From contig NC_081358.1 in assembly GCF_030684315.1 (NCBI RefSeq), positions 80,874,458-80,938,457 of the forward strand: a stretch of 64,000 nucleotides of DNA. The letters run 5' to 3'. The notes beneath the pieces were generated by a model, which was not told where the DNA came from, did not search any database, and was given only the letters and a program-made list of their open reading frames with translations. This DNA comes from Stegostoma tigrinum. Lineage: Eukaryota. The position numbers and the translations under genes are program-made. This document shows positions 10,778-62,579 of the stretch, one piece after another (positions within the stretch are counted from its first letter, which is position 1; each line of letters opens with the position of its first letter).

Positions 10778-10989
10778 GTGATAATGGGAACTGCAGATGC
10801 TGGAGAATCCAAGATAACAAAGTGTGGAGCTGGATGAACACAGCAGGCCAAGCAGCATCTCAAGAGCACAAAAGCTGACGTTTTGGGCCTAGACCCCTTC
10901 TCTGATGAAGGGTCTAGGCCTGAAACGTCAGCTTTTGTGCTCCTGAGATGCTGCTTGGCCTGCTGTGTTCATCCAGCTCCACACTTTGT
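10778..10989. mobile_element. Penelope-terminus fold-back element with a hammerhead core
   Basis: Inverted arms; CTGATGA 10902-10908, GAAA 10922-10925, GTC 10927-10929; 14-bp TSD TATCAGTAGGACCT at 10764-10777 and 10990-11003. Confidence 0.88.
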
Positions 10990-11699
10990 TATCAGTAGGA
11001 CCTATTGCCTTTTTCTATCTTAAGTACTTTTCAGTTGTTTCTTGATCTTATATTAGAGTGCATTGAAGTGGCTAAAGATTCATATCTATGAAAGTGGGAA
11101 CTAAGCAAGATCATCTACTCGGGTTACTTTAGCATGGATACTTTCATTAACCGTACTCAGAACCTGTCACTGAACATGAATGGTTGTGATTGTTTCAGCC
11201 TTAGTCTTTGTATGTCAGGTATGTGCTTGTTCATGATGGGGAACATCATGAACCTCCTGCCCTCAATAATTGTTTAATTGTTCTCCAATGTCTACAAAAG
11301 GATAGGATTGAAGAGCTTTTACATGATCCATTCCTGGGGGAATGCTGACTGTGCTGATTTTGTATGTTGTATTTTTACCAGAGAGGCACTTCATTTTCAT
11401 GTTTGGAAAATACTTCTAAAAAATAACCCAATAGTTTTGTAACTTTACCTCAGATCTGCTTGTTCCTTGACTGCACTCACAACTTTGTTGCAGCCTTACA
11501 GTGGGCTAATGTAATACCACTCGCCTTGTGTAATCACTTAACACAAACCTTTACTGTCACATTGCTTAAAATTTGATTCATTGTCTGCAATTTGCAGTTT
11601 GTCCAGTTCTTTTATTGCTAAGAATATGAATTAATTTTTACTGGAGCTTTTATCTTGTGCAATCTATGTGGCTGTTTACTTAGACTGTTAAATCCTCAT

Positions 11700-26105: not shown

Positions 26106-26282
26106 GCCTCCCCCTCTCTCCCTATTTATTCCAGAACCCTCACCCCATCCCCCTCTCTGATGAAGGGTCTAGGCCCGAAACGTCAGCTTTTGTGCTCCTG
26201 AGATGCTGCTGGGCCTGCTGTGTTCATCCAGCCTCACATTTTATTATCTTCGATTCTCCAGCATCTGCAGTTCCCATTATCA
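26106..26282 (+). mobile_element. Solo Penelope terminal repeat with a hammerhead core
   Basis: Near-identical to part of the 61.4-62.2 kb unit; CTGATGA 26157-26163, GAAA 26177-26180, GTC 26182-26184. Confidence 0.88.
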
Positions 26283-31829: not shown

Positions 31830-32072
31830 AATAAAAACCAAAAGTGCTGCAGACGGTGTAAATCGGGAACAAAAACAAAGTTGCTGGAAAAGCTCAGCAG
31901 GTCTGGCAGCATCTGTGTAGGAGAAAACAGAGTTAACATTTCAGTTCTGGTGACCCTTCCTCAGAACTTCCCCAGTTCTGAGGAAGGGTCACCGGACCAG
32001 AAACGTTAAGTCTATTTTCTCCTCCACAGATGCTGCCAGACCTGCTGAGCTTTGTCAGCAACTTTGTTTTTG
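31830..32072. mobile_element. Penelope-terminus fold-back element with a hammerhead core
   Basis: Inverted arms; CTGAGGA 31978-31984, GAAA 32000-32003; 15-bp TSD with 2 mismatches at 31815-31829 and 32073-32087. Confidence 0.85.
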
Positions 32073-33509
32073 TTCCCAATGAGTCTAGTTTTGCTTAACG
32101 TCCTTATTTCCTAGGTGGCCAAATGTGGCCTTGATGTCAAGGGCTGTCACTCTGATGTCACCTCTGGAATTCAGTTCTTTCATCCACATTTGAACTAAGG
32201 CTTCAATGAGGTCAAGAGCTGAGTGACCCTGGCAGAATCCAAACTGGGTGTCAATGAGCAGGTTATTGCAGAGAAGGTGCAGCTTGACAGCTCTGTTGAT
32301 GACACATTCCATCATTTTATTGATGATTGAGAGTAGACCGAGGTAGTAATTAGCCGGTAGATTTGTCCGACTTTTTATGTGCAGGACATAACTGGGTAAT
32401 TTTCCATATTGTTGGGTAGATACCAATGTTGTAGTTGCACTGGGCCAGCTTGGCCAGGGCATGGAAAGTTCTGGAGCAAAGGTCTTCAGTATTCTTACCA
32501 AAACGTTGTCAGGGCCCACGGTCTTTGCAGTATCCAGATTCTCGGACTAGTTTTTTTGATATCATGCAGATTGAATCAAATTGGCTGGTTACAGGCATCT
32601 GTGATGCTGGGGTCCTTTGGAGCAGGGTTAGATGTATTATCCACTCAGCACCTCTAGCTGAGGATCGTAACCAATGCTTTGGTGTCATCTTTTGTACTGA
32701 GGTATTGGTCTCCAATGTTGAAGATGTGAACATTTATGGAGTCTCCACCTCCAATGAATTGTTTAATTGTCCATCACCACTCACAACTGAATATGAAAGG
32801 ACTTTAGAGCTTAAATCTGTAGTTGTGTATTGCTTATCCCTCTTTATACTTCCTGCTAGCTGTCATGTAAGTAGTCCTGTACTGTAGCTTCACCAGGTAG
32901 GAATTTCACACTAATGCCTAATGGTGATCACAGCACGTGTTTCTGCATTATTTATTAAACCAGTTTGATATTCTGGCTTAAAAAAAAACTGAGACACTGA
33001 AGATCTAACACAAAAGCAACAATTGCTGGATCTTATGGTAGTGGTAAAGTGGAGGCATATACCAGACCAGTGAGTTTGCAAATTATGTTTTAGTATTAAA
33101 CCTGCTGCTGATGGCCCACATAGTTTAATAGATGCCCAGCCTAGAGTTGCTGAATGTATTTGAAGTCTATCTCACTTAGCTGAATGGTAGTACCACACAA
33201 AGACAGTGGAGGTATTCTCAGTATGAAGGCAGACATTAGTCTCCACAAGGACTGTGCGACAGTGACTCCGAATGATACAGAATCTGCAGTAGGCAGGATG
33301 AGGCCAAGTGTGGTTTCCCTTTTGTTGTTTGCTCAGCACCTTGTTACAGGCCCAGTCTAGAAACAAAGTCATTTGGGCTCAACCAGCTCAGTGAATAATG
33401 ATACAACCAAGCTACATTTAATGGTGGATGTTCATGTGCCCCAGCCAGTGTCTATTCATGTCCTTGCCGCTGTCAGTATTTCCTTTGAAATGTGATCAAC
33501 ATGAAGGAG

Positions 33510-33712
33510 ACAACAAGGTGTAGAACTTGATGAACACAGCAGACCAAGCAGCATCTTCGGAGTAAGAAAGATGACATTTCAGGCCTAGACCCTTCATCAA
33601 AGCCTGAAATGTCAACCTTCCAGCTCCTAAGATACTACTTGGCCTGCTGTGTTCATCCATCTCTACTCCTTGTTAACTCGGATTCTCCAGCGTCTGCAAT
33701 TTCTATTATCTC
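33510..33712. mobile_element. Penelope-terminus fold-back element
   Basis: Inverted arms; 14-bp TSD TCAACATGAAGGAG at 33496-33509 and 33713-33726. Confidence 0.85.
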
Positions 33713-33754
33713 TCAACATGAAGGAGTACTGATTTAGCAGCCAAGGTAGAGTGG

Positions 33755-55030: not shown

Positions 55031-55800
55031 CCTTTGTCTCATAGTCCTATAACTGGCCTTTCAAACAAGCTCCCATCGATGTCTAGGAACTGGGAGGAAT
55101 CCAACTCCAAACTGGAAGAGCGCATAGTGCAGAGTTTCACCTCACCACTACCTCCACCTGCTGGATACTAGGAGACAAAGGATTAAGAGCTCTATGCTGG
55201 GTGTCCCACCCTCTGAGAATTGCCAGCTAATCAAAGGCTTCCAGATCTCCATTGCTGGCTGGGAGCAGTGACTCATCCTGGTGGAGCTGCAGAAATTCAA
55301 GTACCCGTGTATCTAGAAAATGTTGCTCTTCCTTTTCCTACAGTTCATATGTGATGTAGCCGATGTAACTTCAACAGAGATTGAGTCAGCAATGCCCCTG
55401 TTCTGTGCAGGGCAGATTTGTACATTGGGAAATGAGACAAAAAAAATAAGGTATATGTTCAGGAGAAGTAAGCAGGTGAGAATGAAATTGTTTTGGATGG
55501 AGTATTCACTTCCCTTTACCTTATATTCACCTCCCTGTACCTTTTTTTTTAAATTTCATTCTTTCCTGGGATGTGGGCATCAATGGCTGAGCCGGCATTT
55601 ATTGCTCCTTAACCAAGGAGTTGTTAAGAGTTAAGAATCAACCACATAGCAGTGGGATTCATGCCAAACCAGGTCAGAGGTAATGAGGTAGATAACTTGT
55701 GGACACAAATAGAAAGTAAATGAACATTACAGTGATGTAACTGCAACGTGACATATGCTACATCCTCAGGGATTAAAAGGTAAAATGAAATGGAGGTGGA

Positions 55801-55962
55801 AATTGTATCAGAGATAATGGGAACTGCAGATGCTGGAGAATCCAAGATAATAAAATGTGAGGCTGGATGAACACAGCAGGCCAAGCAGCATCTCAGGAGC
55901 ACAAAAGCTCCTGAGATGCTGCTTGGCCTGCTGTGTTCATCCAGCCTCACATTTTATTATCT
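55801..55962. mobile_element. Penelope-terminus fold-back element with a perfect 58-bp stem
   Basis: 55843-55900 is the exact reverse complement of 55907-55964 (6-nt loop); 15-bp TSD TGAAATGGAGGTGGA at 55786-55800 and 55963-55977. Confidence 0.92.
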
Positions 55963-56395
55963 TGAAATGGAGGTGGAGTAGTTTTGTTAATAAAGGATGG
56001 TATCAGTGCAGTGGTGTGGAGTGACAGAGGTGTAATAGAGAAATAAGTATGTTTTTGGGTGGAAATAATGAAGAGCAAGGGAAGGAAGTTACAGATGGGA
56101 GTTGTCTTCAATCCCCTGACTGTAATTCCCACTGTAGACAAGGAATAAATGAGGAAATAATGGAATTCTTTTAGAAGGGCATGACTGGACAAACCAGATG
56201 GACAAGAATAACATGGAAGATGAATTTGTAGAGTGCTTCAGGGATACTTTCTTAGAGCAGCATGTTGTACTCAAGAATGGATTATTTTAGATCTAGTGAT
56301 GTGTAATGAGATAAGAGTGATTAAGAGAGCTCAGAGGCAAGTCATAGTTAAGGATCCTCTGGGGGGTGATGATCACAAATTGGTACAATTTCAAA

Positions 56396-57860
56396 GATAA
56401 CAAGGTGTGGAGCTGGATGAACACAGCAGACCAAGCAGCATCAGAGGAGCAGGAAGGCTGACGTTTCGGGCTTAGACCCTTCTTCAAAAATAGGGGAGGG
56501 GAAGGAGTTTCTGAAATAAATAGGGAGACGGGGGGAGGCGGATAGAAGATGGATAGAGGAGAAGATGGTTGAAGAGGAGACGGATAGGTCAAAGAGGCAG
56601 GGATGGAGCCAGTAGAGGTGAGTGTAGGTGGGGAGGCAGGAAGGGTTTAGTTCAGTCCAGGGAGGGCAGACAGGTCAAGAGGGCGGGATGAGGTTAGTAG
56701 GTAGGAGAAGGGGGTGGGGCTTGAGGTGGGAGGTGGGGATAGGTGGGAAGGACAGGTTAGGGAGGCGGGAACGACCTGGGCTGGTTTTGGGATGCGATAG
56801 GGCAATGAGAGATTTTGAAGCTTGCGAAGTCCACATTGATACCATTGGGCTGCAGCGTTCCCAAGCAGAATAAGAGTTACTGCTCCTGCAACCTTCGGGT
56901 GGCATCATTGTGGCACTGCAGGAGGCCCAGGATGGACATGTTGTCTGAGGAATGGTAGGGGGAGTTGAAATAGTTTGTAACTGGGAGGTGCAGTTGTTTT
57001 GTGTGAACCGAGCATTGGTGTTTTGCAAAGCGGTCCCCAAGCCTCTGCTTGGTTTCTACGATGTAGAGGAAGCCACAACAGGAACAGCAGATGCAGTATA
57101 CTACATTAGCAGACGTGCAGGTGAACATTTGTTTAATGTCAAAAGTCTTCTTTCGGCTTAGGATGGGAGTGAGGGGGGAAGTGTAGGGGCAGGTGTAGCA
57201 CTTCCTGCAATTGCAGAGAAAAGTGATGGATGCGGTGAGGCTGGAGGGGAGTGTGGAGCAGACAAGGGCATCATGGAGGGAGTGGTCCCTCCTGAAAGCA
57301 GATAAAGGTGGGGAGGGAAAAATGTCTTTGGTGGAGGGGTCGGATTGCAGATGGCGGAAGTGTTGGAGGATGATGCATTGGATCCGGAGGTTGCTGGGGT
57401 AGTAAGTTAAGACAAGGGGAATTCTCTTTGGTTGTTATTGCAGGGAGGGGGAGTGAGGGATGAATTGCAGGAAATGCAGGACACACAGTCGAGGGCGTTC
57501 TCAACTACTGAGGGGGGCAAGTTTCAGTCCTTGAAAAACAAGGACATCTGAGATGTGTGGGAGTGGAATGCTTTATCCTGGGGGCAGATGCAGCATAGGG
57601 AAATGAATTGGGAATAGGGAATGGCATTCTTGCAGGAAGGTGGTTGGGAGGAGGTGTATTCTAGGTAGCTGTGGGAGCCAGTGGGCTTGAAATGGATATC
57701 GATTTCTAGGTTGTTGCCAGAGATGGAGACAGAGAGGTCCAGGAAGGAGAGAGAGGTATTAGAGATGGTCCAGGTGAACTTCAGGTTCAGGTGGAAAGTG
57801 ATGGTGAAGTGGATGAACTGTTCGAGCTCCTCATGGGAGCATGAGGCAGTGCCGATACAG
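56396..57860 (-). mobile_element. 5'-truncated Penelope-like element (RT C-terminus, GIY-YIG, terminal repeat)
   Basis: LKFTWTIS..SFLDLSV..KPTGSHSYL..KNAIPYSQF; NVVYCICCSCCGFLYIVETKQRLGDRF; terminal repeat with decayed hammerhead (TTGAAGA..GAAACGTC); TTCAAA at both junctions. Confidence 0.93.
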
Positions 57861-59995: not shown

Positions 59996-61492
59996 GACCA
60001 TCCTGTTACTTACGATAAATCCAACCCAACTGAGAATGCCATCTCAGACATGATAAAGTCTGTAAGGAATAGCTCTGCTCAGCTCAGAAAGATAATGAGG
60101 AGCTGGAAGCAAAGGAAAGTCAGGAGAATGAACTATAAACTCTGTATCATCAATTCAATAAAGATGTTTCTGGTTTACAGAAAGATCTCTAGCAGCTTAG
60201 ATCAACCATGATCTCACTGAATGGTAGGGCAGAATTGATGGACCAAATGCTCTACTACTGCTTCCAAATTTTACGGTCCTATAGTTTTATGATCTTATGG
60301 TGTTATCTAACTCTCATGTAATGCAGATTAGGAGCAGCAGGAATGGTCACAAGAGCATTGCTTGAGCTCAAAGGATTTCCAGAGAAAATAATTGACTTGG
60401 AATAGAATAGAATAGCCTTTATTGTCACGTGTACTCAAATCAGTGCAGTGAAAAGTTTATAATGACCCAACATCCTCAATCACTTCCCATGAAGTAATCC
60501 TACCATTCAAGACATTAATCTGGTGAAATTCCTTTGCATTCCCTTAGTGAAAATATAGTACTGTGACTCAGATGATGTGCTTTTTATGAGTAATATGTGC
60601 TATTTCTTGCTTTAGCTTCCTTCTTGCAGCTATGTCATTTAATTCAAGTATTAATCATGAATTAAATACTATATGCCTGAGACTAATTTTTATGTTTTCC
60701 TTATCCGATTAATTTTGTACAGTGTTTCTGAGCAACAGATGAGCCAGGATGTGCTTATTAGAGAAGGAACAACAATAAAACCAATGAAGGAAACTACTCA
60801 TTTGAGTCCAGTAACCAGTTTAAATGGCCTAAAACCAATTTTCATTCATCAAAAGTGAATAGTCCAGCGTCAAAATAAACAAATAACTATGAAGATGTCT
60901 TACAAAAGGCAACAATGAATAAAGATTGTTTTATTTTATGCTTAATTATAAAGTTAATTGTCAAAGTTTGCATATGTAAATTCAGAGGATTATATTTTAC
61001 AAAGATTAGCTTACAAAGTAATATTTCATATTGTTATTGCAATAACTCATGATGAATTTGTAATAAAGGACTAATTGATCATGATAACAAACTTAAAAAC
61101 ACAACGGCCTAGCCTTTCCTCAGGAGAGATAAACTTACCAGAGAGGAAGTGCTGTGCAAGTTTACCAGACTCATTCCTGAGATGGTGTGACTGTCCAATG
61201 AGAACACTGGGTTTATATTAGAAGATTAAAAGGTGATCTCATAAAAACTTATAAAATTCTTAAAGGGATATATAGAATTGATGCAGAAATTCCCGCAGGT
61301 TTGAGATCTAGCACTAGATGACACAGCATCAGAATAAAAGGCAAGACATTAAGCCTCTTCCAGGGATGCCTAACCTGAAGAAGTTACCCTCCTCCCTCCG
61401 GACCAACCTCAGGGAATCTCTCTCCCATTGCCATCTTCGGTCCGCCTCCCCCTCTCTCCCTATTTATTCCAGTTCCCTCTCCCCATCCCCCT

Positions 61493-61524
61493 CTCTGATG
61501 AAGGGTCCAGGCCCGAAACGTCAG
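61493..61524 (+). ncRNA. Minimal type I hammerhead ribozyme motif, unit 1
   Basis: CTGATGA (61495-61501), extra A, stem II GGGT-ccag-GCCC, GAAA (61515-61518), C, GTC (61520-61522); stem I is only about 2 bp. Confidence 0.7.
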
Positions 61525-61787
61525 CTTTTGTGCTCCTGAGATGCTGCTGGGCCTGCTGTGTTCATCCAGCCTCACATTTTATTATCTTGGAATTCTCCAG
61601 CATCTGCAGTTCCCATTATCTCTGATACTATTTTAACCTCACTGCGAAGCCTCTTCCAGGGATGCCTAACCTGAAGAAGTTACCCTCCTCCCTCCGGACC
61701 AACCTCGGGGAATCTCTCTCCATTGCCATCTTTGGTCCGCCTCCCCCTCTCTCCCTATTTATTCCAGTTCCCTCTCCCCATCCCCCT

Positions 61788-61819
61788 CTCTGATGAAGGG
61801 TCCAGGCCCGAAACGTCAG
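61788..61819 (+). ncRNA. Minimal type I hammerhead ribozyme motif, unit 2
   Basis: CTGATGA 61790-61796, GAAA 61810-61813, GTC 61815-61817. Confidence 0.7.
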
Positions 61820-62083
61820 CTTTTGTGCTCCTGAGATGCTGCTGGGCCTGCTGTGTTCATCCAGCCTCACATTTTATTATCTTGGAATTCTCCAGCATCT
61901 GCAGTTCCCATTATCTCTGATACTATTTTAACCTCACTGCGAAGCCTCTTCCAGGGATGCCTAACCTGAAGAAGTTACCCTCCTCCCTCCGGACCAACCT
62001 CAGGGAATCTCTCTCCCATTGCCATCTTCGGTCCGCCTCCCCCTCTCTCCCTATTTATTCCAGTTCCCTCTCCCCATCCCCCT

Positions 62084-62115
62084 CTCTGATGAAGGGTCTA
62101 GGCCCGAAACGTCAG
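62084..62115 (+). ncRNA. Minimal type I hammerhead ribozyme motif, unit 3
   Basis: CTGATGA 62086-62092, GAAA 62106-62109, GTC 62111-62113. Confidence 0.7.
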
Positions 62116-62579
62116 CTTTTGTGCTCCTGAGATGCTGCTTGGCCTGCTGTGTTCATCCAGCCTCACATTTTATTATCTTGGAATTCTCCAGCATCTGCAG
62201 TTCCCATTATCTCCAAGACATTAAGGATTGAGATGAAGAGGAACATCTTCACTCAGAAGGTGGCAAGGGTTTGGAATTCTATTCCACAGAGGGCTGTGGA
62301 AACTCAAGCATCATGCAAGTTCAAGACAGAGATTGATATATTTCTAGCTACTAATGATGTCAAGGGATACAGGGACACTGAGGAGATTGCATTGAGGTGG
62401 ATGATCAACCATGATCTAGAATCACAAAGCAAAGTCAAAGTACCTCCTCTTGTATCTATGTTTCCATGTTGCAAAGCATATGACTTGGCCATAAATTAAC
62501 CTTTGAGCTGATTTAGATATGAGTGTCGCTCATAAGGCTAACATCTAAAAGACTGGAACAGGACAATCAAGCTTGCTTT

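Follow-up and report, generated by a model that had tools for sequence, protein, structure and literature searches.

A multimeric, hammerhead-bearing deletion derivative of a coexisting Penelope-like element in Stegostoma tigrinum

Main finding

The tandem array at 61351-62213 of the 64-kb stretch of Stegostoma tigrinum DNA analysed here (the window, whose numbering is used unless a locus is named) is, as judged from its sequence, a non-coding and non-autonomous deletion derivative of an autonomous Penelope-like element (PLE). In the account that we prefer, with a probability of about 0.5, this 296-nt derivative was inserted in one target-primed event by enzymes of the parent acting in trans, most likely through repeated copying of a circular RNA that already bore the deletion join. 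Taken alone, the locus is an unexceptional example of a class that is large in this genome, where such elements have likely been born repeatedly.

Structure and integrity of the array

TRF recovers a period of 295 with 2.9 copies and 98% matches, and on both sides of the array stands the same 12-bp sequence, CAAGACATTAAG (61342-61353 and 62214-62225), a direct repeat without mismatch whose final three bases are identical to the start of the element. These results confirm the preliminary description of about 2.9 tandem units of 295-296 bp within a single target-site duplication (TSD). The insertion interrupts a decayed LINE frame, which we take to be CR1; the TSD consists of three codons of this frame in duplicate, and the host ORF continues across it, with IKGKTL closing the left flank and KTLRIEMKRN opening the right. 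No colinear intact CR1 copy was found among the loci examined. When counted from the predicted hammerhead cut, with +1 as the base after it, the array reads in parental coordinates as +124..+204, -92..-1, +1..+204, -92..-1, +1..+204, -92..-1 and +1..+99, and its features are as follows:

61100..62420, forward strand: host, a decayed LINE coding fragment (presumably CR1) split by the array, limits approximate
61342..61353, forward strand: left TSD, a 12-bp direct repeat duplicating part of the host frame, last 3 bases common with the element start
61351..61431, forward strand: first piece, 5'-truncated, parent +124..+204, with the parental start codon at 61366
61431..61431, forward strand: first deletion join, parent +204 to -92 with 1-nt overlap, recurring at 61726 and 62022
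61431..61522, forward strand: parental 3' end -92..-1 with the first hammerhead (core 61495-61522), haplotype -15C
61523..61817, forward strand: first predicted cut-to-cut monomer, 295 nt, +27G/-15C, three private changes near the join; second hammerhead core at 61790-61817
61818..62113, forward strand: second predicted cut-to-cut monomer, 296 nt, +27G/-15T; third hammerhead core at 62086-62113
62114..62213, forward strand: last piece, +1..+99 with +27T; its end lies in the second 3' end cluster of the family, a candidate start site of reverse transcription
62214..62225, forward strand: right TSD

Hammerhead cores of the form CTGATGA-A-stem II-GAAAC-GTC start at 61495, 61790 and 62086, and the cuts predicted after 61522, 61817 and 62113 would release monomers of 295 and 296 nt; the earlier claim of one hammerhead per unit with monomers of these sizes thus holds by pattern match and cut-to-cut length. 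The pattern has five matches in the 64-kb window against 0.54 expected, and none of 100 shuffles reached five. Coding remnants amount to merely 43-57 codons of the start of the parental ORF, and the GC content of 52% is marginally over the <50% given for retrozymes (Cervera 2020).

Two earlier statements on the form of the array survive in part. It was said to start and end in mid-unit: the 5' end is indeed truncated, whereas the 3' end at +99 is not arbitrary, being an ordinary end point of the family, and therefore provides no evidence for a circle. Likewise, the units are near-identical, with 98% matches, but they do not represent a single haplotype, as units 1 and 2 carry -15C/+27G and the terminal piece -15T/+27T. 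An assembly artefact, previously named as a possible refutation, might be suspected from the lack of any short-read contig found to span the whole array (the contigs come from four runs, possibly of the assembly's own sample). It can nonetheless be practically dismissed: the units differ at five columns, both flank joins are present without differences in short-read contigs (which extend fewer than 31 letters into the element), the array has a clean TSD, and many loci hold comparable arrays.

The parental element

The unit matches an intact PLE of the same genome at 92-100% identity and consists of parental +1..+204 joined to -92..-1, with a 1-nt overlap at the join. As the unit retains the first 204 and the last 92 bases of its parent, it still includes the hammerhead, the beginning of the ORF and the sites at which the family's 3' ends lie. 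A parental copy on contig 1 near 22.10 Mb (L075:2269-5499, minus strand) contains an open ORF of 1076 aa and is itself longer than one unit, with 570 nt of an upstream repeat, 3621 nt and 64 nt; the cut-to-cut length of the parent is 3621 nt. The near identity of both ends of the unit to this intact element bears out the proposal of a mini-Penelope devoid of reverse transcriptase (RT) and endonuclease. The parental ORF gives weak matches to RVT_1 and GIY-YIG, under the Pfam cut-offs, and displays a DKG motif and a CX4CxxC linker, CNRRKCYTC, which fits the pattern CX2-5CxxC between the RT and the GIY-YIG domain at the C terminus. In the account of Craig et al. 2021 (PMC8557442) this linker motif marks Neptune or Nematis and not Poseidon. 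Thus, the parent would be a Neptune-type EN+ element, with a linker motif common to Nematis. The L075 copy is a candidate source of enzyme for in vitro work.

The family is large, with 156,181 exact copies reading intact across the cut site. Its 3' ends (n=338) fall at 60-76 (159), 95-111 (124) and 113-124 (26), with 29 elsewhere, and the three classes are centered at about +65, +100 and +117; the array's end at +99 falls within these sites. Other PLE remnants in the window are:

56390-57505, reverse strand: PLE fragment of an older related subfamily
26106-26281, forward strand: truncated simple copy of the array's own PLE family
33508-33713: diverged inverted PLE pair
55793-55968 and 10780-10993: head-to-head stubs of the array's PLE family

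Two palindromic PLE stubs of the window, at 55871-55936 and 31923-32019, coincide with Rfam matches below threshold (to mir-3150 and mir-3914, respectively), and these families may resemble PLE stubs by chance or by origin.

Deletion joins across the genome

The first 100 of 3388 exact matches to parental +84..+115, representing 91 loci on contig 1, served as a sample. Fifty-four of the 100 enter a deletion join, at 47 of the 91 loci and mostly at different positions, which scales to an estimate of ~1800 joined units genome-wide as a rough lower bound. The 72 joined insertions of this sample include 47 with one join, 17 with two, five with three, two with four and one with seven. Joins agree between loci in 127 of 2556 pairs (5%), 12 of them exactly. 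Searching the genome for the junction, as had been suggested, thus uncovered like units elsewhere that vary in copy number, begin at scattered 5' positions and have TSDs of their own, and the refuting case of a junction unique to this locus did not materialize: deletion joins of various kinds are present at 47 loci of the sample, and the exact join of the window array is found at two other loci (C28 and C3), both on other haplotypes. Three further pattern matches to this join were rejected as chance (control 6 versus 9 matches).

The differing haplotypes of the C28 and C3 copies led us to discard a single common 296-nt family, and the sequences do not support a self-propagating family of this length. 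Certain joins do recur: +198/-96 is present at 13 places, and +215/-115, with a 1-nt overlap, at 41 places with 1-8 matches each. At the 31 loci examined for the latter, no fewer than five parental haplotypes carry it, so it arises repeatedly; one lineage was rejected as the sole account of the corresponding 329-nt unit on the same count of haplotypes, at 31 loci of the 41 places. The positions of the joins at the 47 loci are uneven, with none at +116..+174 against 34 at +175..+233, the supply of microhomology being similar in both; the spared segment agrees with the need of an anole PLE for RNA downstream of the RT start sites. Three joins (L041, L147 and L203) run from +173..+248 directly to the cut site. 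Splicing was discarded as a source of the joins, as inspection revealed no GT/AG pattern on either strand.

When the multimers formed

We consider it highly probable that the multimers formed at insertion, from RNA already holding the join, and not mainly by later duplication. In a wider sample of 199 non-redundant loci, partly picked for shared joins, one join is repeated in 47 of the 52 multi-join insertions. In the contig 1 sample the same join is used throughout 22 of 25 multi-join insertions, against the 5% agreement between loci, and where both inverted arms are joined the join is identical in 13 of 15; the automated count overlooks further cases with short pieces. The two arms have distinct ends: of the 92 insertions with two arms, 82 combine an end at +65 with one at +100 or +117, another 10 show a single end that falls outside the three classes, and in no case do the arms share a class. 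Arms that end at different family sites must have been separately primed and are therefore not products of a later tandem duplication, and separately primed arms with one join imply that the join was already in the RNA. The pattern suggests that priming of the two target strands is paired and uses two fixed positions in the RNA. A one-sided tail is known qualitatively from previous work (PMC3846280, PMC8557442).

Sequence variation is in keeping with this timing. The 52 multi-join insertions have 395 private variants, 38 rare variants common to all copies and 18 that are partly shared, and the biggest arrays are almost uniform. The 5' ends of the arms are evenly scattered round the unit, and exact TSDs of 7-18 bp flank 34 of the 52, against 20 of 500 in the control. 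The earlier view that the multimer was made at insertion and not by local duplication is thus upheld by the joins common to both arms (13/15) and the mostly private variants. A cleaner example than the window array is an insertion on contig 1 near 104.86 Mb (L065:2134-4550): its unit is 329 nt long, its two arms together contain seven joins, its TSD measures 14 bp, and of 2267 bases one column varies.

The contrary proposal, that a shorter mini insertion was enlarged in place by unequal crossover, could draw on the two variants common to units 1 and 2 against unit 3, on the 18 partly shared variants of the sample and on the local amplification proposed in a preprint (bioRxiv 10.64898/2026.07.22.740005). 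We find it very doubtful, as unequal crossover cannot place one join in both of two inverted, separately ended arms (13/15 on contig 1), the longest arrays are the most uniform and even a single duplication at the window locus would require an original insertion with two joins.

A further candidate was a linear RNA with fixed ends, on which arms would halt exactly at the join after repeated jumps. Although 8 of 11 arms looked so at first, 7 of 10 flagged arms in fact extend past the join, by a stretch below the length that BLAST reports, leaving ~3 of 182 against 3.8 expected, and the idea was abandoned. In one insertion (L057:340-2330) the jump of one arm at -1011 and the start of its partner at -1010 look as though a single RNA end had been met by both; this is a single case, and no general excess of such shared RNA ends was seen.

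The hammerhead and its possible cleavage

Consecutive units of the tandem contain a complete type I hammerhead motif in its minimal form. The features of minimal PLE hammerheads (Cervera 2014, PMC4209133) are present, namely an intact core, an extra base between 9 and 10.1, a G10.1-C11.1 pair and palindromic 15.2-16.2. Helix II has 4 bp, helix I has 2 bp and helix III has no loop; hence the motif has neither the 6-bp helix I and loop contacts of the canonical type I form (Cervera 2020) nor the helix lengths of the Schistosoma type (7-8 bp in II, 4-5 bp in I). A 2-bp helix I has been reported for a D. virilis variant (PMC4209133). An Rfam scan gave no hammerhead family match at the array. The predicted energetics are unremarkable: the dimer hammerhead fold lies ~16 kcal/mol above the minimum, the isolated motif folds at -11.4 kcal/mol (the criterion of Li et al. 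2026 being < -5) as a core-hiding hairpin no better than those of shuffles, and no stable special fold of the monomer is predicted (z = +1.45).

The 5' ends of genomic copies offer a possible fossil record of cleavage in vivo. Genome-wide, copies starting at -2, -1, +1, +2 and +3 number 179, 475, 3158, 405 and 481, respectively. By a hand count of the first 100 of the 3158 cut-site starts, ~65 are palindromic arm joins, a class that is ambiguous since a blunt join of two +3 ends yields the same letters, and ~10 show microhomology; the remainder scale to ~790, or ~1.7-2 times the neighbors at -1, +2 and +3. Tiny palindromic insertions joined at the cut were counted 771 times, compared with 41 for the next 4-base palindrome upstream, itself a CpG-containing sequence. 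Stalling at a +3 hairpin was rejected as the cause of the cut-site peak, there being no peak at +3, with the palindromic class still ambiguous. In a small local sample only five ends lie at the cut site. In that sample 5' ends peak at parental -31..-29 (31 ends), just upstream of CUGAUGA, where the predicted core-hiding hairpin has its base.

Taken together, these end counts lend moderate support to cleavage by the hammerhead of a minority of templates in vivo. For an anole PLE, uncut RNA was used in vitro and no RNA reads ending at the cut site are reported (PMC11167929), and among frog dimers cleavage is described in one of nine (bioRxiv 10.64898/2026.07.22.740005).

Circular or linear templates

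The haplotypes of the window array constrain its template. The preliminary description invoked rolling reverse transcription of a ~296-nt circle; an RNA that carried the join beforehand stands, and a hammerhead-cut monomer circle is a putative template. With two parental haplotypes in the array, one such circle is insufficient without a second event. The mixed haplotypes need a template switch, conversion or a mixed donor. The repeated piece of the array is a contiguous parental haplotype across the hammerhead.

A genomic donor was looked for in several ways. The haplotype -15C/+27G is seen at 18 other loci, and none of the 18 shows the join within 3 kb. Indeed, for none of five arrays (window, L064, L065, L066 and L071) was a mini copy found with matching join and haplotype. 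In the case of L065 a variant marks the parental subfamily, and of 22 other loci viewed none has a listed position overlapping the list of joins; for L066 the search gave one other match, of an older haplotype. It may be that this assembly just does not contain the donors. Because the units are uniform, copy numbers fall steadily (47, 17, 5, 2 and one insertion with seven) and donors are absent for five arrays, a circle or other one-off template is favored, and circular RNA appears to be the likeliest template for the window array.

The chief competitor is the single, end-to-end copying of a linear, uncut read-through transcript from an older donor array that had already varied, for which no circle would be needed here. 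It would account for the two haplotypes ordered along the array and for the three clustered private changes in unit 2. Elsewhere, the inner pieces of both arms in L072 and L245 share a variant absent from the terminal pieces, the mark expected of a linear uncut transcript, and in L238 a variant occupies the two 5'-most of five units; moreover, the main in vitro substrate of the anole enzyme is described as uncut RNA (PMC11167929). We hold this explanation to be somewhat unlikely for the window array, since no donor has this join on this haplotype, nor is there one for the four other arrays, the origin of the first multimer is left unexplained and variants within arrays are mostly private (395 versus 18 partly shared). 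In four insertions the second arm continues beyond the join as parental sequence. Across the family, circular and linear routes probably both operate.

It is also conceivable that the join formed outside the chromosome with no hammerhead cleavage, through a fragment of parental RNA from -92 to +204 that closed on itself, or through a transcribed DNA circle derived from cDNA, either of which would then be copied round. The lack of genomic donors in 5/5 arrays is compatible with such an origin, as are the recurrence of +215/-115 (41 places, five or more parental haplotypes), the joins from +173..+248 directly to the cut site and the contiguous parental haplotype across the hammerhead in the piece repeated here. 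The joins have no splice signals by inspection, and the genomic product would be the same as under our preferred explanation; we regard this alternative as quite improbable.

Under the preferred explanation, a short RNA already bearing the deletion join, and most likely circular, would serve as template, its cleavage and ligation being putative steps. Such templates would keep arising from parental RNA or from short-lived mini copies, and not from one stable mini family. The parental RT-endonuclease would bind the RNA somewhere within +1..+175, and reverse transcription would start at +99, pass the hammerhead site and the join and continue for ~2.9 rounds. The piece lying last in the array, from the second parental haplotype, would reflect an early template switch or a later conversion. 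A broader and more tentative proposal, which we rate as possible at less than even odds, is that the PLE keeps shedding one-off RNA circles of ~270-400 nt that combine its two ends and have no durable master copy in DNA. On such a circle a PLE dimer would prime the two target strands, at two fixed sites, and then roll round the RNA, and the hammerhead would cut a share of the templates in vivo.

Relationship to known systems

Circle-templated PLE copying beyond unit length was proposed in 2014 (PMC4209133), and a definition of non-LTR retrozymes followed in 2020 (Cervera and de la Pena, PMC7229834). These resemble the window array in their noncoding tandem units of 150-450 bp with a type I hammerhead each, TSDs of >4 bp and a relation to PLE terminal repeats. 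A July 2026 preprint (Li, Clavereau and Pollet, bioRxiv 10.64898/2026.07.22.740005) presents retrozymes as PLE derivatives, includes one chondrichthyan, in which their mean length is 363 bp, and leaves their life cycle unresolved. A connection of PLEs with retrozymes in a cartilaginous fish, claimed at the outset, is therefore not new. The main text of the preprint does not deal with deletions, junctions or target sites, and it favors local amplification.

Unlike the coral and axolotl retrozymes described as making circles, which have a canonical hammerhead (PMC7229834), the array has the minimal PLE form; and unlike the retrozymes of these two accounts, its unit is what a two-ended deletion leaves of an intact PLE in the same genome, at 92-100% identity, within a family with many different joins. 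As the array agrees with the definition of Li et al. and lacks the canonical hammerhead of the circle-makers, it would function as retrozymes do, and mini-PLE multimer is the most fitting label for it.

With Neptune-type EN+ PLEs as described (PMC8557442) the array shares terminal sequence, minimal hammerhead, TSDs, head-to-head arms and a 30-40 nt tail on one side, and it differs in lacking RT and endonuclease and in a repeat unit of 296 versus 3621 nt. Chlamys elements such as MRC1 (PMC8557442) are likewise non-autonomous PLE derivatives with multicopy head-to-tail insertions, but belong to a green algal clade with an N-terminal endonuclease and mostly without hammerheads. The anole Poseidon element PAc (Frangieh et al. 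2024, PMC11167929) is comparable in having two RT starts inside the RNA downstream of the hammerhead, extension of both target strands and a requirement for RNA downstream of the start sites; it is of another PLE clade, hammerhead cleavage was dispensable for it in vitro and the account of it describes no mini elements.

No report of mini-PLE deletion joins in cartilaginous fish was found in the open-access articles and main preprint texts searched. Within that literature, the multitude of recurrent deletions that join the two ends of a living parent, the spared region and the joins common to both arms appear to be new.

Implications

With an intact parental ORF, a 296-nt substrate, a spared region at +1..+175 and fixed paired starts, rolling copying of a circle is directly testable in vitro. 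The observations bear on how PLEs build their tandem and inverted ends and on whether hammerheads and RNA circles take part. If the broader proposal of one-off circles is true, the tandems of retrozymes would be direct products of PLE reverse transcription and not of a later, satellite-like amplification.
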